A stretch of DNA of 44,293 bases from sequence record MZ234049.1. One strand, 5' to 3'. Under the pieces are notes generated by a model that did not search any database, was not told where the DNA came from, and saw only the letters and a program-made list of their open reading frames with translations. Of the stretch, positions 33,143 through 40,802 are shown piece by piece; positions within the stretch are counted from its first letter, which is position 1, and each line of letters starts with the position of its first letter. The DNA comes from Escherichia phage vB_EcoP-UTI89UKE2. The position numbers were made by a program, and so were the translations under genes.

Positions 33143-33337
33143 ATGATTAACTCCGAACTGGTAGATAGTGGTGTGAAGCTTGCGCCACCTGCATTAGTCT
33201 CAGGTGGGTACTTCCTCGGTATCAGTTGGGATAATTGGGTGTTAATAGCAACATTCATTTATACCGTGTTGCAAATTGGAGACTGGTTTTATACCAAGAT
33301 TAAACTATGGAGGAAGAATCGTGAGCGTCCACAATAA
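33143..33337 (+). CDS. putative holin (64 aa)
   Basis: RBS AAGGAGG; hydrophobic segment plus charged C-terminus KLWRKNRERPQ; position equivalent to T7 gp17.5. Confidence 0.55.
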   Translation: MINSELVDSGVKLAPPALVSGGYFLGISWDNWVLIATFIYTVLQIGDWFYTKIKLWRKNRERPQ

Positions 33338-33620: not shown

Positions 33621-35518
33621 TGGCTAAGGCAAGAGAATCACAAGCGGAGGCTCTTGCCAGATGGGAGATGCTACAGGAGTTACAGCAGACCTTTCCTTAC
33701 ACAGCGGAAGGTTTGCTTCTCTTTGCAGATACAGTTATTCATAACTTAATTGCAGGCAACCCTCATCTGATTCGTATGCAGGCGGATATCTTGAAGTTCC
33801 TATTTTACGGACACAAGTACCGCCTCATCGAAGCGCCTCGTGGTATCGCTAAGACAACACTATCAGCAATCTATACGGTATTCCGTATTATTCATGAACC
33901 ACATAAGCGTATCATGGTTGTGTCCCAAAACGCCAAGCGAGCAGAGGAAATCGCAGGTTGGGTAGTTAAAATCTTCCGTGGCTTAGACTTTCTTGAGTTT
34001 ATGCTGCCGGATATCTACGCTGGGGACCGTGCATCCGTTAAGGCGTTTGAGATTCATTACACCCTACGTGGTAGTGATAAGTCTCCTTCTGTATCCTGTT
34101 ACTCAATCGAAGCAGGTATGCAGGGTGCTCGTGCTGATATTATTCTAGCGGATGACGTAGAGTCGATGCAGAATGCTCGTACGGCAGCGGGCCGTGCCTT
34201 GCTTGAGGAACTGACTAAGGAGTTTGAATCTATCAACCAGTTTGGGGATATCATTTACCTTGGTACACCTCAGAACGTAAACTCTATCTACAACAACCTG
34301 CCTGCTCGTGGTTACTCTGTTCGTATCTGGACTGCGCGTTACCCTTCAGTAGAGCAAGAGCAATGTTATGGCGACTTCCTTGCACCTATGATTGTTCAAG
34401 ATATGAAGGACAACCCAGCACTTCGCTCAGGGTACGGGTTGGATGGTAATAGTGGTGCACCTTGTGCCCCTGAAATGTATGATGATGAAGTCCTGATTGA
34501 GAAGGAAATCTCTCAGGGTGCTGCTAAGTTCCAGCTTCAGTTCATGCTTAACACTCGCATGATGGATGCTGACAGATACCCATTACGCCTGAACAATCTA
34601 ATCTTCACCTCGTTTGGTACAGAGGAAGTCCCTGTGATGCCTACGTGGAGTAATGATTCCATAAACATCATTGGTGATGCACCTAAGTATGGTAACAAGC
34701 CTACGGATTTCATGTACAGACCTGTAGCTCGCCCATACGAATGGGGTGCTGTCTCCCGCAAGATTATGTATATTGACCCTGCGGGTGGTGGTAAGAACGG
34801 AGATGAGACGGGTGTAGCCATCGTATTCCTGCACGGCACATTCATTTATGTGTATCAGTGCTTTGGTGTACCTGGCGGATACCGAGAGTCGTCCCTGAAT
34901 CGCATTGTGCAGGCCGCAAAGCAGGCGGGTGTTAAAGAGGTATTCATTGAGAAGAACTTTGGTCATGGCGCGTTTGAGGCGGTAATTAAGCCGTACTTTG
35001 AACGAGAGTGGCCTGTAACTCTGGAAGAGGATTACGCCACCGGACAGAAAGAGTTGCGTATCATTGAGACGCTGGAGCCGCTCATGGCAGCCCATAGGCT
35101 TATCTTCAATGCAGAGATGGTGAAGTCAGACTTTGAGTCGGTACAGCACTATCCGCTTGAACTACGCATGTCCTACAGTCTTTTCAATCAAATGTCGAAC
35201 ATAACGATTGAGAAGAACAGCCTCCGGCACGATGACCGCCTAGACGCCCTGTATGGCGCTATACGGCAATTAACTTCTCAGATAGACTATGACGAGGTTA
35301 CACGGATTAATCGCCTCAGAGCGCAGGAGATGCGCGATTACATCCATGCTATGAATACACCTCATCTACGCAGGGCAATGCTATATGGAGATTACGGTAC
35401 TGAGCGAAGAGTGACCAACACTTCCGTAGCGATGCAGCAGCGAGTTTACGGGCAGAACTACCGAAATAAATCGGCAAGCAGAAATACACTTTCTGCAAGG
35501 ATTTCAAGGACTTATTAA
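33620..35518 (+). CDS. terminase large subunit (gp19-like)
   Basis: Walker A-like RGIAKTT ... ILADDVE (Walker B) and C-terminal nuclease region. The track start at 33617 is a TTG. Confidence 0.9.
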   Translation: MAKARESQAEALARWEMLQELQQTFPYTAEGLLLFADTVIHNLIAGNPHLIRMQADILKFLFYGHKYRLIEAPRGIAKTTLSAIYTVFRIIHEPHKRIMVVSQNAKRAEEIAGWVVKIFRGLDFLEFMLPDIYAGDRASVKAFEIHYTLRGSDKSPSVSCYSIEAGMQGARADIILADDVESMQNARTAAGRALLEELTKEFESINQFGDIIYLGTPQNVNSIYNNLPARGYSVRIWTARYPSVEQEQCYGDFLAPMIVQDMKDNPALRSGYGLDGNSGAPCAPEMYDDEVLIEKEISQGAAKFQLQFMLNTRMMDADRYPLRLNNLIFTSFGTEEVPVMPTWSNDSINIIGDAPKYGNKPTDFMYRPVARPYEWGAVSRKIMYIDPAGGGKNGDETGVAIVFLHGTFIYVYQCFGVPGGYRESSLNRIVQAAKQAGVKEVFIEKNFGHGAFEAVIKPYFEREWPVTLEEDYATGQKELRIIETLEPLMAAHRLIFNAEMVKSDFESVQHYPLELRMSYSLFNQMSNITIEKNSLRHDDRLDALYGAIRQLTSQIDYDEVTRINRLRAQEMRDYIHAMNTPHLRRAMLYGDYGTERRVTNTSVAMQQRVYGQNYRNKSASRNTLSARISRTY

Positions 35519-35538
35519 TTACTGGACACTATAGAAGG
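35517..35538 (+). promoter_or_regulatory. phage RNAP promoter (AATTACTGGACACTATAGAAGG)
   Basis: Consensus; starts immediately after the terminase stop. Confidence 0.8.
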
Positions 35539-35544
35539 AAGGCC

Positions 35545-35971: not shown

Positions 35972-36259
35972 ATGGCTAAATATGGTACTACAGGTTCTGT
36001 TACGGGTCAGGCTTTTCGAGTGAAAGCAGTACAAACTATTGCAACGGCAATTCCTATGCCTGTTGTTGCTGAAGAAGACCTTAAGAAGAAAGATCATCCT
36101 ATCAACATCAAATATTTATCAGGTAAACAGAGAGGTGCAATGGTTGTTATTTCGAGAGCGGACACAACCGTGCATATTGCTGTTGCACGTGGTAGTGAGC
36201 CCACCGACGTTTGGGATGTAACTGCTATGGACTCCCTTGCTGTTACACCAGGGGAGTGA
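35972..36259 (+). CDS. hypothetical protein (95 aa), paralog 2
   Basis: RBS AAGGAGG; motif KYLSGKQRGAMVVISRA ... HIAVARGSEPTDVWDV. Confidence 0.6.
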   Translation: MAKYGTTGSVTGQAFRVKAVQTIATAIPMPVVAEEDLKKKDHPINIKYLSGKQRGAMVVISRADTTVHIAVARGSEPTDVWDVTAMDSLAVTPGE

Positions 36260-36266
36260 TATTATC

Positions 36267-36944
36267 GTGTTAGGTATTACAGGACAACGAAGTGTAAGTC
36301 ATCAAGCTAAGGTTGCCACGGAAGTGGCTCCTATCGTTGATATCTCAGATGTGTCTGACGTTAACTCTTATCTAAACCAAAAGTACCTATCAGGTAAACA
36401 GGAAGGATATACTGTTCTGACTAAGAAAGGTTCACGTTATTCATTGTATGCTGCAACAGGTTCTAAGCCAGAAGATAAGTGGTTGCCTTTAGAGCAAGCA
36501 ACCCTACCTGATTCGAGTGCATTAGAGCTAATTGACACCATCGATGTTGAAGTTGCAAGTGCAAGCGACACAGTAGAGGTTAATGTAACCAAAGAGAGGA
36601 CTGTGTGCATCCAGACGCCTATGAAGGACTTAGCAGGTGATACAGTTTACCGGCAAGAATTGACTGCCAACATTAACCTTACCATTAATGAAAACGGAAG
36701 CCCAAGCGATACGGTTAAATTAAACATATCAATTCCTAATTTGCCAGGAACATCTAGTGGGTCTTACTATACAGTTGACAATGTGCTGTGTACTTCTTTT
36801 GGAGACGACAGTCCTGTTATTGCCAATATAGATGTCGATAAGGCTACCACTAACTTGATTGCTGTTACACTTCGTAAAGAGACGGCAACAGATATTAGGC
36901 TGTCTCTTGTAATTAGGTGGTCAATGCCAGTGGAGATTGTATAA
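36267..36944 (+). CDS. hypothetical protein (about 225 aa), paralog 3 with C-terminal extension; GTG start inferred
   Basis: Motif KYLSGKQEGYTVL ... YAATGSKPEDKWLPL; start codon uncertain (TTG 36237 or GTG 36267). Confidence 0.55.
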   Translation: MLGITGQRSVSHQAKVATEVAPIVDISDVSDVNSYLNQKYLSGKQEGYTVLTKKGSRYSLYAATGSKPEDKWLPLEQATLPDSSALELIDTIDVEVASASDTVEVNVTKERTVCIQTPMKDLAGDTVYRQELTANINLTINENGSPSDTVKLNISIPNLPGTSSGSYYTVDNVLCTSFGDDSPVIANIDVDKATTNLIAVTLRKETATDIRLSLVIRWSMPVEIV

Positions 36945-37288
36945 TGCTTAACAAATACTTCAAGCGTAAAGAGTTCGCTTGCCGTTGTGGGTGCGGTACA
37001 TCCACTGTTGATGCTGAATTACTGCAGGTAGTCACAGATGTGCGTGAGCACTTTGGTACTCCTGTTGTTATCACTTCTGGTCATCGCTGTGCTAAGCACA
37101 ATGCTAATGTAGGTGGAGCTAAGAACTCTATGCATCTTACTGGTAAGGCTGCTGACATTAAGGTACGAGGCATCTTACCTTCTGATGTACATAAGTACCT
37201 TACTGATAAGTACCAAGGCAAGTATGGTATTGGTAAATATACCTCCTTTACTCATATTGATGTACGTGACGGGTGTGCACGATGGTAG
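36944..37288 (+). CDS. endolysin, peptidase M15 family (zinc peptidase)
   Basis: FACRCGCG ... SGHRCAKHNANVGGAKNSMHLTGKAADI ... HIDVRDG; ATG overlaps the upstream stop. Confidence 0.8.
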   Translation: MLNKYFKRKEFACRCGCGTSTVDAELLQVVTDVREHFGTPVVITSGHRCAKHNANVGGAKNSMHLTGKAADIKVRGILPSDVHKYLTDKYQGKYGIGKYTSFTHIDVRDGCARW

Positions 37289-37396
37289 GTTGTGTTGCAT
37301 GGTGTGAACGCATGGTTGCTAAGGCTTCAGAGGAAGGCAACTATGAAGATTGGCAGAACTACTCAACTTTATTAGCTCAATGGAAAGGGAGATGCA

Positions 37397-37546
37397 ATGA
37401 AAAAGCTGTTCAAATCTAAGAAGGTTGTAGGTGCACTAGTTGCATTGGCAATTGCTCTTGTTTCTGTAGGTCTTGGTGTAGACCTTGGCTCTGGCACGGA
37501 ATCCTCTGTGACAGATGTGGTATGCCAAGTAATCACCTGTGAATAA
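37397..37546 (+). CDS. small membrane protein (49 aa), possible lysis-associated protein
   Basis: N-terminal MKKLFKSKK followed by a hydrophobic helix; lies between endolysin and spanins. Confidence 0.35.
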   Translation: MKKLFKSKKVVGALVALAIALVSVGLGVDLGSGTESSVTDVVCQVITCE

Positions 37547-37760
37547 GGTGCTTGAGGTGGTGGCAGGTCTTATTGGCCTGCTGCTTGCCGCTAAGAAGAA
37601 GAAGGAAGAGAAGGAGGTACAAAGTGAGGCGAATCATGCTAGCGACAATCCTGCTGATTGGTTCGCTGATCACTTCAGGGTGTCAGACGGCGTTACCAGA
37701 GAATCCAAAGGTGAAACCTCTGAAGCCGACGCTTACGGCAGTCTACGAGGTGGACGATAG
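37539..37760 (+). CDS. putative i-spanin (Rz-like; start codon ambiguous, GTG candidates at 37539-37560)
   Basis: N-terminal TM segment VLEVVAGLIGLLLAA followed by a charged periplasmic region; overlaps the o-spanin gene. Confidence 0.45.
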   Translation: MNKVLEVVAGLIGLLLAAKKKKEEKEVQSEANHASDNPADWFADHFRVSDGVTRESKGETSEADAYGSLRGGR

Positions 37761-37833
37761 AGTCTGCTTCAGTAAACCTGACGCTACAAAATTGGGTCTG
37801 TACATTCTCTCGCTAGAACGCGGATATAATTAA
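37636..37833 (+). CDS. putative o-spanin lipoprotein (Rz1-like)
   Basis: Signal plus lipobox-like LITSGC, then a Pro-rich mature part with a second Cys; gene starts inside the i-spanin gene in another frame and extends past it. Confidence 0.55.
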   Translation: MLATILLIGSLITSGCQTALPENPKVKPLKPTLTAVYEVDDRVCFSKPDATKLGLYILSLERGYN

Positions 37834-37862
37834 TACATAGTTTTATGTATCAGTGTCTTACG

Positions 37863-37885
37863 ATTTACTGGACACTATAGAAGAG
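37863..37885 (+). promoter_or_regulatory. phage RNAP promoter (ATTTACTGGACACTATAGAAGAG) for the tailspike module
   Basis: Exact consensus. Confidence 0.8.
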
Positions 37886-37964
37886 ATGAGATAGTGCCGT
37901 TCTTTTGAGCGGCCTATTACTAGCCAATCTTCATAGGGAGGATTGGGAAGTAATAGGAGAGTAT

Positions 37965-38300
37965 ATGGCTAAGTTAACTAAACCCAAGACAACGGGCTTA
38001 CTACATAGAGATACTGTACTAGCTAACTTATTAGATAATTTACTATCTAAAAGGCGTGTTACATTTGAAGGTGTAGCTCCAAGTGAAGATACTAAAATTG
38101 AGATAGAAGTACCTGTGACAGGAGACTTAGATTCTTCGTGGGCATCAATTGTATCATTAAGTACACCTGCACTTTGTACAGCTTGGATCACTAAACTGTC
38201 AGATACTACTTTAGAGATTCATGTATTTCATACAGCACAAGTAGAAATAGACATAGAGGTAGATGTTTACGTTCTAGGTAAGCACACTGTCAGTGCGTAA
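37965..38300 (+). CDS. hypothetical protein (111 aa) preceding the tailspike gene
   Basis: RBS GGAG then ATG at 37965. A 111-aa ORF at this position is recalled for K1E-type phages, where K1-5 carries a second tailspike instead. Confidence 0.6.
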   Translation: MAKLTKPKTTGLLHRDTVLANLLDNLLSKRRVTFEGVAPSEDTKIEIEVPVTGDLDSSWASIVSLSTPALCTAWITKLSDTTLEIHVFHTAQVEIDIEVDVYVLGKHTVSA

Positions 38301-38366
38301 GCACTGCTTTTCGCGCAACTTTTCTTAAAGGTTATCATGATGGTAGCCTTTCAGAAAGGAGGTTAC

Positions 38367-40802
38367 ATGATTCAAAGACTAGGTTCTTCATTAGTTAAAT
38401 TCAAGAGTAAAATAGCAGGTGCAATCTGGCGTAACTTGGATGACAAGCTCACCGAGGTTGTATCGCTTAAAGATTTTGGAGCCAAAGGTGATGGTAAGAC
38501 AAACGACCAAGATGCAGTAAATGCAGCGATGGCTTCAGGTAAGAGAATTGACGGTGCTGGTGCTACTTACAAAGTATCATCTTTACCTGATATGGAGCGA
38601 TTCTATAACACCCGCTTCGTATGGGAACGTTTAGCAGGTCAACCTCTTTACTATGTGAGTAAAGGTTTTATCAATGGTGAACTCTATAAAATCACGGACA
38701 ACCCTTATTACAATGCTTGGCCTCAAGACAAGGCGTTTGTATATGAGAATGTGATATATGCACCCTACATGGGTAGCGACCGTCATGGTGTTAGTCGTCT
38801 GCATGTATCATGGGTTAAGTCTGGTGACGATGGTCAAACATGGTCTACTCCAGAGTGGCTAACTGATCTGCATCCAGATTACCCTACAGTGAACTATCAT
38901 TGTATGAGTATGGGTGTATGTCGCAACCGTCTGTTTGCCATGATTGAAACACGTACTTTAGCCAAGAACGCACTAACCAATTGTGCATTGTGGGATCGCC
39001 CTATGTCTCGTAGTCTGCATCTTACTGGTGGTATCACTAAGGCTGCAAATCAGCGTTATGCAACAATCCATGTACCTGATCACGGATTATTCGTGGGCGA
39101 TTTTGTTAGCTTCTCTAATTCTGCGGTAACAGGTGTAACTGGTGATATGAAAGTTGCAACAGTTATAGATAAGGACAACTTCACGGTTCTTACAGCCAAT
39201 CAGCAGACCTCTGATTTGAACAATGCTGGAAAGAATTGGCACATGGGTACTTCCTTCCATAAGTCTCCATGGCGTAAGACAGATCTTGGCCTGATACCTC
39301 GTGTTACTGAAGTTCATAGCTTTGCTACTATTGATAACAATGGCTTTGTTATGGGTTATCACCAAGGCGACGTAGCTCCACGCGAAGTTGGTCTTTTCTA
39401 CTTCCCTGATGCTTTTAACAATCCATCTAATTATGTTCGTCGTCAGATACCATCTGAGTACGAACCGGGTGCTGCAGAGCCATGCATCAAGTACTATGAC
39501 GGTGTATTATACCTTATCACTCGTGGTACTCGTGGCGACCGACTAGGAAGCTCTTTGCATCGTAGTAGAGATATAGGTCAGACTTGGGAGTCACTGAGAT
39601 TTCCACATAATGTTCATCATACTACCTTACCTTTTGCTAAAGTAGGAGATGACCTTATTATGTTTGGTTCAGAACGTGCAGAAAATGAATGGGAAGCAGG
39701 TGCACCAGATGATCGTTACAAGGCATCTTATCCTCGTACCTTCTATGCACGATTGAATGTAAACAATTGGAATGCAGATGATATTGAATGGGTTAACATC
39801 ACAGACCAAATCTATCAAGGTGACATTGTGAACTCTAGTGTAGGTGTAGGTTCTGTTGTAGTTAAAGACAGCTACATTTACTATATCTTTGGTGGTGAAA
39901 ACCATTTCAACCCAATGACTTATGGTGACAACAAAGATAAAGACCCATTTAAAGGTAATGGACACCCTACTGATATATACTGCTATAAGATGCAGATTGC
40001 AAATGACAGTCGTGTATCTCGTAAGTTTACATATGGTGCAACTCCTGGTCAGGCTATACCTACTTTCATGGGTACTGATGGTATTCGCACTATTCCTGCT
40101 CCACTTCACTTATCAGGAGAGGTAGTTGCCGCAGATATGACTGTCGAACACCTTACCTTGAAGGCAAGTACAAGTGCTAATATTCGCTCAGAGATGCTGA
40201 TGGAGGGTGAATATGGGTTCATTGGTAAGACTATACCAACGGATAACCCAACCGCCCAACGTGTTATCATCTCTGGTGGAGAGGGTACAGCAGCAGATAC
40301 CGGTGCGCAAATTACCTTACACGGAGCAGGTTCTAGCACTTCTAGACGCGCAGTATATAATGCCAATGAGCACTTGTTCCAAAGTGGAGCTATCATGCCA
40401 TACAATGATAACGTGTATCCTGCTGGTGGCCCTCGTAATAGATTCACTACTATCCATCTTACAAGTGACCCTATTATTACGTCGGATGCCACTCATAAGT
40501 ATGGATCACAAGGTATTGATGAGAGTGTACTAAAGGCATGGGGTAAGGTTAGCTTCAAGCAGTACAAGTTGATTGGTGAGATGTCTCGTGGTGTGCACCA
40601 CACTCACTTTGGTGTATTGGCACAAGACATTGTAGCTGCTTTTGCATCCGAAGGGTTAGATGCAATCGACTTCGGCATTGTCTCCTTCGAAGAAGGTCAG
40701 TTTGGTGTTAGATATAGTGAAATCTTAATCTTGGAGGCTGCTTATACTCGCTATCGTTTAGACAAGTTAGAGGAGATGTATGCCACTAATAAAATCAGTT
40801 AA
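38367..40802 (+). CDS. tailspike endo-N-acetylneuraminidase (endosialidase) with C-terminal intramolecular chaperone domain
   Basis: 811 aa from ATG 38367 (RBS AAGGAGG). Sequence recognised from memory as K1-phage endosialidase, including the C-terminal block ending YATNKIS. Confidence 0.88.
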   Translation: MIQRLGSSLVKFKSKIAGAIWRNLDDKLTEVVSLKDFGAKGDGKTNDQDAVNAAMASGKRIDGAGATYKVSSLPDMERFYNTRFVWERLAGQPLYYVSKGFINGELYKITDNPYYNAWPQDKAFVYENVIYAPYMGSDRHGVSRLHVSWVKSGDDGQTWSTPEWLTDLHPDYPTVNYHCMSMGVCRNRLFAMIETRTLAKNALTNCALWDRPMSRSLHLTGGITKAANQRYATIHVPDHGLFVGDFVSFSNSAVTGVTGDMKVATVIDKDNFTVLTANQQTSDLNNAGKNWHMGTSFHKSPWRKTDLGLIPRVTEVHSFATIDNNGFVMGYHQGDVAPREVGLFYFPDAFNNPSNYVRRQIPSEYEPGAAEPCIKYYDGVLYLITRGTRGDRLGSSLHRSRDIGQTWESLRFPHNVHHTTLPFAKVGDDLIMFGSERAENEWEAGAPDDRYKASYPRTFYARLNVNNWNADDIEWVNITDQIYQGDIVNSSVGVGSVVVKDSYIYYIFGGENHFNPMTYGDNKDKDPFKGNGHPTDIYCYKMQIANDSRVSRKFTYGATPGQAIPTFMGTDGIRTIPAPLHLSGEVVAADMTVEHLTLKASTSANIRSEMLMEGEYGFIGKTIPTDNPTAQRVIISGGEGTAADTGAQITLHGAGSSTSRRAVYNANEHLFQSGAIMPYNDNVYPAGGPRNRFTTIHLTSDPIITSDATHKYGSQGIDESVLKAWGKVSFKQYKLIGEMSRGVHHTHFGVLAQDIVAAFASEGLDAIDFGIVSFEEGQFGVRYSEILILEAAYTRYRLDKLEEMYATNKIS

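Follow-up and report, generated by a model that had tools for sequence, protein, structure and literature searches.

A usually unannotated small gene overlapping the putative o-spanin gene in the lysis cassette of Escherichia phage vB_EcoP-UTI89UKE2

The lysis cassette of Escherichia phage vB_EcoP-UTI89UKE2 (sequence record MZ234049.1) was analysed within the whole stretch of 44,293 nucleotides (nt), which is called the window here. The cassette consists of five tightly overlapping genes, namely those for an M15 endolysin, a protein of 45 amino acids (aa), the small membrane protein gp44, a 73-aa protein (orf73, hereafter X) and the lipoprotein gp45, and the five are apparently translationally coupled. 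As a whole, the cassette belongs to a known kind, that of the late lysis modules of K1E-like podophages. Judged by its substitution pattern and its distant homologues, X is a genuine gene under selection, and its product is a candidate for the inner-membrane subunit (i-spanin) that would act with gp45, a predicted lipoprotein of the outer-membrane spanin (o-spanin) family. The inner-membrane spanin partner in this module is probably non-canonical. We tentatively propose, with a confidence that stays somewhat below even, that gp45 acts with X as a non-canonical partner on the side of the inner membrane, gp44 being an accessory protein of the holin-like kind.

orf73 and its pairing with gp45

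X is encoded on the + strand at 37539-37760; its GTG start codon overlaps the gp44 stop codon, and its conserved core comprises residues 1-48. When the cassette was compared among 23 relatives, all of its open reading frames (ORFs) proved to be open and under purifying selection, and both the X frame and its GTG were conserved in every one of the 23. The part of X that lies outside gp45 (77 nt, 37547-37623) has a nucleotide diversity of 0.205, 0.057 and 0.34 at the first, second and third codon positions, with 17 of 26, nine of 25 and 21 of 26 sites variable, respectively. The ratio of nonsynonymous to synonymous substitution rates (dN/dS) in this part is 0.26 in the X frame; for the other two frames it is 1.6 and 3.7. 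Where X runs over the signal peptide of gp45, its dN/dS is 0.13 and that of gp45 is 0.55. Residues 49-73 of X, which run over the conserved body of gp45, have a dN/dS of 0.93 and are interrupted by premature stops in several relatives. With the tail neutral and truncated in this way, residues 1-48 are the functional part. The constrained half of each gene overlaps the unconstrained half of the other, and the overlap amounts to 137 nt, with gp45 in the +1 frame.

Homologues of X are numerous. X matches phrog_9219 (E=8e-34). Word-indexed searches with orf73, gp44 and T7 gp19.5 returned close relatives only; by an exhaustive profile search the X family was seen to comprise 59 clusters of proteins of 58-95 aa, detectable at about 30% identity, and X had been called by gene callers in 40 clusters. 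Common to the members are a helix at the N-terminus, a cluster of basic residues, a helix with EQxxAQxEAD, the motif [DN]PxxWFxxHF and a tail of polar residues; the conserved core of X amounts to one long helix and, after it, a second helix that carries [DN]PxxWFxxHF. In ECBP5, RCIP0089 and one further context, the homologue begins with an ATG that overlaps the upstream stop codon. A frameshift fusion of gp44 and X was also considered and rejected, since a stop lies in the X frame three codons upstream, the GTG is invariant, and the distant homologues begin with an ATG overlapping the upstream stop.

The lipoprotein gene gp45 ends the cassette (37624-37833, + strand). Its 69-aa product is a predicted outer-membrane lipoprotein precursor with the signal sequence MRRIMLATILLIGSLITSG before the lipobox Cys (codon 37681-37683). 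It matches phrog_8971, annotated as Rz-like spanin (E=3e-39), and related sequences occur in 162 phage records. The initial annotation had placed the start of this gene at ATG 37636, inside the 73-aa ORF and in another frame. The lipobox and the out-of-frame start within X were borne out, and the start is better placed at GTG 37624. The sequence AAGGAGG lies at 37611-37617, 6 nt before this GTG; SP6 has ATG at its position, and has Trp, with no Met, at the position of the internal ATG 37636; and the K/R n-region of a lipoprotein signal (R2/R3) is present only in the form that begins at the GTG. We therefore take GTG 37624 as most likely the start of gp45, and the equivalent start was also used by Kongari et al. 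(PMC6139136). In a pattern check, TSGC with Cys at position 20 fits [ILMFTV][^REKD][GAS]C. The +2 residue is Gln, and among relatives it is Q, S, A, G, V or E and never D, in agreement with the rule for outer-membrane sorting. The part of gp45 outside the overlap has a dN/dS of 0.09, and its periplasmic Cys is conserved. A unimolecular spanin was rejected for gp45, which has no C-terminal transmembrane domain (TMD), only the 8-residue stretch LGLYILSL. The gene lies downstream of the endolysin gene here and in the distant contexts that were inspected, the exception being Vibrio phage vB_VpaM_XM1 (excerpt 701-910), where a gp45-family lipoprotein gene stands beside an integrase gene with no lysis genes nearby.

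To see how X and gp45 are distributed together, we inspected 11 X-family contexts outside the close relatives, made up of metagenomic contigs together with ECBP5, RCIP0089 and Kp7. An overlapping gp45-family lipoprotein gene, with the C-terminal motif D[AS]xxLGxYILxLERGY, was found in all 11, and X and gp45 also overlap in Proteus phage PM93 and Aeromonas phage Tola. Both the endolysins nearby (M15_3, DUF5675, Amidase_3, transglycosylase) and the holins vary. Directly upstream of X there is always a gene for a small membrane protein; its product is often a two-TMD protein of 65-70 aa that matches both 'holin' PHROGs and phrog_4712, the PHROG of gp44. The X/gp45 pair thus looks like an old module, which to our knowledge has not been described as such before.

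The annotation of the two overlapping frames is confused in several records. In SP6 (AY288927.2), the coding sequence (CDS) at 39607-39804, labelled 'o-spanin' (gene 48), translates as VAGLLGLLLAYKKKQ... and is in the orf73 frame; the real lipoprotein (MKQIWLAMTLLIGSLTISGC...) is in the other frame and is unannotated at gene 48. In the records of PM93 and Aeromonas phage Tola, it is again the X frame that is annotated, and the lipoprotein is left out.

The inner-membrane partner of gp45

In the lysis pathway that we propose, the holin would permeabilise the inner membrane, the endolysin would escape and cut the peptide cross-links of the peptidoglycan, and gp45 together with a partner on the inner-membrane side would destroy the outer membrane. 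X, and not gp44, would be this partner; as a minimal 'i-spanin equivalent', it would have no standard type II anchor and would be kept at the membrane by its N-terminal helix, which is short and hydrophobic or amphipathic. gp44 would be a holin-like accessory factor. The assignment of X is supported by its strict pairing with gp45, by its position in the i-spanin slot and by its charged helical body. Residues 19-36 are highly charged, and an AlphaFold2 (AF2) model built from a 44-sequence alignment consists of helices at residues 2-36 and 38-49 followed by a disordered tail, with a predicted local distance difference test score (pLDDT) above 85 up to residue 40. As to position, distant phages with M15 endolysins have canonical i-spanins of 70-75 aa at the place of X. 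In addition, the homologue in the SP6-like phage UAB_Phi78 has been curated as the i-spanin of an overlapped pair (PMC6139136), whose two proteins, of 69 and 61 aa, agree in length with X and gp45. The holin-like assignment of gp44 is supported by the two-TMD relatives detected by phrog_4712 and by Pectobacterium phage PP1, which keeps a gp44 homologue without X or gp45.

Several observations weigh against this proposal, most of them concerning the N-terminus of X, where a convincing TMD in N-in/C-out orientation, as expected of an i-spanin, was not found. The N-terminal stretch has 12 uncharged residues, or 15 if an internal Glu (E6) is allowed, and some variants carry D13 within it. On the Hessa hydrophobicity scale, the summed insertion energy comes to 7.6 kcal/mol for 19 residues and to 0.2 for 15; the scale is crude, and the accepted i-spanin T7 gp18.5 also scores poorly on it (4.7 and 1.6), so that the X of the window, taken alone, is borderline. 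Of the 59 family representatives, most clearly have no TMD, an amphipathic helix taking its place. Across the family, uncharged runs are at most nine residues long in 39 of 52 representatives, the median 19-residue value is 7.5, and some N-termini are plainly amphipathic, e.g. MRAFVELLNRILALLESALRRREN. The KKKK that follows the hydrophobic stretch on its C-terminal side predicts a cytoplasmic C-terminus, the wrong topology for an i-spanin, and as long as the holin has not acted, an X in the cytoplasm would be out of reach of a lipoprotein in the periplasm. Nor does X have a conserved C-terminal region for o-spanin binding, its tail being unconstrained and variably truncated; in lambda Rz, the C-terminus is the part that contacts Rz1. 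The remaining points come from outside X. gp44 does have an N-terminal TMD in N-in/C-out orientation; in Vibrio phage ICP3, where no X-like ORF is present, the locus of the T7 18.5/18.7 spanins is occupied by a gp44 homologue and, directly next to it, a different lipoprotein; and the gp45-family lipoprotein of Vibrio phage XM1 stands alone, without an overlapping X, which hints that a lipoprotein of this family can act, or be kept, without X. We also found no experimental work on spanins of the SP6 group, or on any of the proteins discussed here, in the literature. The i-spanin/o-spanin pair of the initial annotation accordingly stands as regards the lipoprotein and the out-of-frame overlap, and the i-spanin call for the 73-aa protein stays putative, as a reasonable call from position for a protein that lacks the defining anchor. 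Secretion of X by a cleavable signal peptide was considered separately and rejected, the -1 residue being Tyr in many relatives and the basic cluster following directly.

The alternative that survives best is the published one, in which gp44 is the i-spanin and gp45 the o-spanin of a 'separated' mini two-component spanin, and X is accessory or regulatory and merely shares the DNA of gp45. We consider it unlikely, if well short of negligible. gp44 (37397-37546, + strand) is a 49-aa protein predicted to span the membrane once, N-in/C-out; a K-rich N-terminus is followed by a 19-residue hydrophobic segment with a summed insertion energy of -1.2 kcal/mol on the same scale, in agreement with the 49-aa membrane protein of the initial annotation, and a 21-aa periplasmic tail ends in CxxxxC. 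Its dN/dS is 0.18. The robust anchor, the conserved periplasmic Cys pair and the conserved periplasmic Cys of gp45 all suit a spanin pair. K1-5, K1E and SP6 were in fact curated as a separated pair of gp44 (i-spanin) and gp45 (o-spanin), with the flag 'Too small?' (Kongari 2018, PMC6139136), and the gp44 homologue is called 'i-spanin' in the SP6 record (gene 56) and 'putative I-spanin' in that of LL11. Moreover, gp44 homologues (in ICP3, a 47-aa protein; hhalign probability 96%) abut a lipoprotein at the T7 spanin locus in the vibriophages ICP3 and VP4, and the gp44 homologue of PP1, a phage without gp45, also lacks the Cys pair. Against this stands the small size of gp44: it has only about 21 periplasmic residues and no predicted coiled coil, and the periplasmic residues of gp44 and gp45 (21 + 50 = 71) are among the shortest in the curated set, in which they range from 62 to 300. 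gp44 matches phrog_4712 'holin' (E=3e-27) and is also labelled holin by RefSeq. Relatives detected by the same PHROG are holin-like proteins with two TMDs and only a short periplasmic loop (E=1e-5 to 5e-4), and there is a possible, unproven relationship to T7 gp19.5. Furthermore, the alternative leaves the strict pairing of X and gp45 unexplained, and a gp44 homologue persists in PP1 in the absence of both.

Two of the phages just named carry lipoprotein genes of their own. In ICP3 (excerpt 1465-1805), the gp44 homologue and an unrelated acidic 65-aa lipoprotein are encoded between two terminase genes. In PP1 (excerpt 1819-2495), a 38-aa lipoprotein (mature CIVIYDSENVEV...) is encoded just upstream of the endolysin, and it resembles the N-terminus of the ICP3 lipoprotein (CTVNIVKDSTDV...).

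A second alternative is that X is a cytoplasmic or peripheral protein with a membrane-active or regulatory role, either as an antiholin-like timer or as a disruptin-like peptide that leaves through the holin lesions, and that gp45 works without a dedicated inner-membrane subunit. We regard this as rather improbable. It would suit the N-termini of the family, most of which have no TMD and show high helical hydrophobic moments, up to 0.7, the basic cluster that always follows the helix, and the AF2 model of one long helix, a short helix and a disordered acidic tail. The small membrane protein that always precedes X, and the lone lipoprotein of XM1, would fit as well. However, a known precedent linking such a protein to a lipoprotein gene is lacking, and the strict overlap with gp45 argues for a joint function. 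Phages of the ECBP5/KBNP1315 type, which have a secreted endolysin and a proposed pinholin (PMC4640515), keep the module, and such a system would not release a cytoplasmic protein. Finally, that the 73-aa ORF is no gene, its frame being open by chance and through constraints on gp45 and its ribosome-binding site, is very improbable: X is left out of the annotations of K1E, UTI89UKE3 and many other phages, has a GTG start without a Shine-Dalgarno sequence and has a C-terminal third that is neutral and interrupted in some relatives, but the dN/dS and codon-position pattern of the 77 nt fit the X frame, 59 clusters share the PxxWFxxHF motif, and distant members start with ATG.

A broader proposal can be made, namely that X/gp45 represents a system of a third kind for disrupting the outer membrane, one that would be widespread among the phages that infect Gram-negative bacteria. 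In it, an outer-membrane lipoprotein would act together with a small helical protein lacking a transmembrane anchor, which would be peripheral on the inner membrane, or cytoplasmic until the holin lesions give it access to the envelope; the 'mini i-spanins' (gp44) of SP6, K1E and K1-5 would then really be holin-like. This is speculative, and we think it unlikely to hold. Should X work without being anchored in the membrane, two-component spanins would have to be defined more widely. Phages of the SP6/K1E type serve in phage therapy and supply capsule depolymerases, and their lysis pathway has never been tested experimentally. Meanwhile, the databases hold three incompatible sets of labels, with gp44 as 'holin' or 'i-spanin', the SP6 'o-spanin' placed on the orf73 frame, and orf73 usually unannotated. 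For annotators, orf73 is a missing gene, one that is under selection and almost always coupled to the gp45 lipoprotein family. For spanin research, the cassette offers a clean test case, because the 77 nt at 37547-37623 allow X to be knocked out with gp45 untouched.

Other lysis genes and the surroundings of the cassette

The endolysin gene (36944-37288, + strand) encodes a 114-aa protein that is predicted to be a cytoplasmic M15 zinc peptidase, of the LAS type. It matches Pfam Peptidase_M15_3 over profile positions 1-108 of 108 (E=1.1e-32, 112.9 bits; the cut-off is 23.2 bits) and phrog_894 endolysin (E=2e-44). When 10 homologues with identities as low as 37% were combined into a profile, it matched Protein Data Bank (PDB) entry 1LBU (E=1.3e-10), and H64 and D71 (H-x6-D), H104 and D106 are invariant among these homologues and align to the NSRHMYGHAAD segment of 1LBU. 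The M15 fold is assigned from these profile matches, the single-sequence AF2 model being poor (pLDDT 52). The endolysin has no N-terminal hydrophobic segment and no signal or signal-arrest-release (SAR) sequence, and therefore a holin is needed. It has been said that biochemical evidence for the endolysins of the SP6 group does not exist (PMC4837284).

A candidate for this holin lies apart from the other lysis genes, 3.6 kb upstream. The product of 33143-33337 (+ strand; 64 aa) is a holin of the T7 gp17.5 type, with matches to Pfam Phage_holin_2_2 (E=3.2e-27), to phrog_920 holin (E=1.9e-27) and, by tblastn, to T7 gp17.5 (38% identity, E=1.4e-6). No credible homologue of the T7 lysozyme gp3.5, an amidase and inhibitor of the RNA polymerase, was found by tblastn in six frames of the window, the best match being 26 aa on the minus strand (E=0.009), and no amidase is annotated in K1E. 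These results agree with the initial annotation, which had assigned the endolysin to the M15 zinc peptidases, had set a holin-like gene far upstream and had stated that a T7-type amidase is absent.

All the ORFs of that annotation are present where it placed them, and the cassette genes that it listed are real; a conserved 45-aa ORF had been overlooked, which makes five genes and not four. This ORF (37282-37419, + strand; MVGCVAWCE..., with a CxxxC motif) encodes a soluble protein, and its start overlaps the endolysin stop (ATGGTAG). It matches phrog_1312 (E=1.3e-17), has a dN/dS of 0.15, is annotated in MZ234050, and is kept together with gp44, X and gp45 even where the endolysin differs (ECBP5, RCIP0089, Aeromonas phage Tola).

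Over the 1.4 kb around the cassette, identity to another record, that of Escherichia phage vB_EcoP-UTI89UKE3 (MZ234050; window position = MZ234050 position minus 1), is 100%; in that record all six CDSs across the region are labelled 'hypothetical protein'. Other Vectrevirus/K1E-like phages are 90-98% identical to the 1.4 kb of the cassette. The tailspike encoded 3' of the cassette is an endosialidase (gene 38367-40802), and the phage is therefore a K1-capsule phage of the SP6/K1E group. Two + strand sites frame the region and are presumably phage promoters, being called from the known SP6/K1E promoter consensus: AATTACTGGACACTATAGAAGGA at 35517-35539, upstream of the operon that contains the cassette, and ATTTACTGGACACTATAGAAGAG at 37863-37885, directly after the cassette and before the tailspike genes. 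The promoter core CACTATAG has 11 matches on the + strand of the window (3718, 6019, 6867, 10395, 11164, 12397, 15565, 20646, 33422, 35527 and 37873), most of them with the full ATTTACTGGACACTATAGAAG consensus. Neither an intrinsic terminator between the cassette and the 37863 promoter nor a notable RNA structure after the cassette was found.

Some further features of the window were noted. Its first three letters are ATG, a terminal repeat was not found in it, and the record is therefore permuted or trimmed. Directly 5' of the endolysin gene there is a 225-aa ORF (36267-36944, phrog_32357), which is missing from K1E and many relatives and whose N-terminus is paralogous to the preceding 95-aa ORF (35972-36259, phrog_2725). 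The label 'acetyl-CoA acetyltransferase' is a widespread mislabel in the phrog_2725 family; the Kp7 counterpart is called a minor capsid protein with an immunoglobulin (Ig) domain. Between the 37863 promoter and the tailspike gene lies a 111-aa ORF (37965-38300, phrog_15083), which corresponds to K1E gene 46. The terminase large subunit is encoded by a single intact gene in the window (about 33621-35519); that of K1E is split by a homing endonuclease gene (40A/40.5/40B; K1E 37390-40034). In RCIP0089, an HNH endonuclease gene is inserted just upstream of the small lysis genes.

Comparison with known lysis systems

The closest known systems are those of K1E, K1-5 and SP6 (Molineuxvirinae), whose lysis genes gp43 (endolysin), gp44 and gp45 are direct homologues in identical order. 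Identity to K1E is 84% for the endolysin, 92% for gp44 and 99% for gp45, and a T7-type holin gene precedes the terminase genes in both phages. Unlike K1E, the present phage has the extra 225-aa ORF before the endolysin gene, and both the 45-aa ORF and orf73 are missing from the annotation of K1E.

Among T7 proteins, gp19.5 resembles gp44: both have 49 aa, basic residues at the N-terminus, a single TMD and CxxxxC at the C-terminus, and both genes lie to the right of the terminase genes. By BLASTP, the two are 40% identical over 25 aa (pairwise E=2e-4); hhalign against the gp19.5 family gives a probability of only 45% (E=2e-4), and gp44 is not detected by Pfam PF17553 (no match at E<=1) or by phrog_2193, the two proteins being in different PHROGs. 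The case for homology is suggestive only. In T7, full-size spanins are present alongside gp19.5, which by its genetics behaves as a lysis-timing factor of the holin type (PMC2680503, PMC8365609).

The endolysin shares the SxHxxGxAxD and H-x-D metal/catalytic motifs with 1LBU, the Zn D-Ala-D-Ala carboxypeptidase of Streptomyces albus, and with other M15/LAS peptidases, among them further phage endolysins of the Peptidase_M15_3 family. Unlike 1LBU, the phage enzyme is a single 114-aa domain without a cell-wall-binding domain.

Two further comparisons concern X and gp45 themselves. The 'disruptin' gp28 of phage phiKT is a small, helical, amphipathic protein for which an action on the outer membrane, after holin and endolysin, has been proposed; it is strongly cationic and replaces spanins. 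X differs from it in being net acidic and in being always paired with a lipoprotein. With lambda Rz/Rz1 and T7 gp18.5/gp18.7, the X/gp45 pair shares no sequence similarity. Compared with Rz and gp18.5, X is half as large, has no clear type II TMD, carries its basic residues on the wrong side, and has neither a long coiled coil nor a constrained C-terminus. What the three pairs have in common is the arrangement, in which the gene for a small outer-membrane lipoprotein lies out of frame inside a second gene, or overlaps it, at the end of the cassette, and the proline-rich N-terminal part of the mature lipoprotein.

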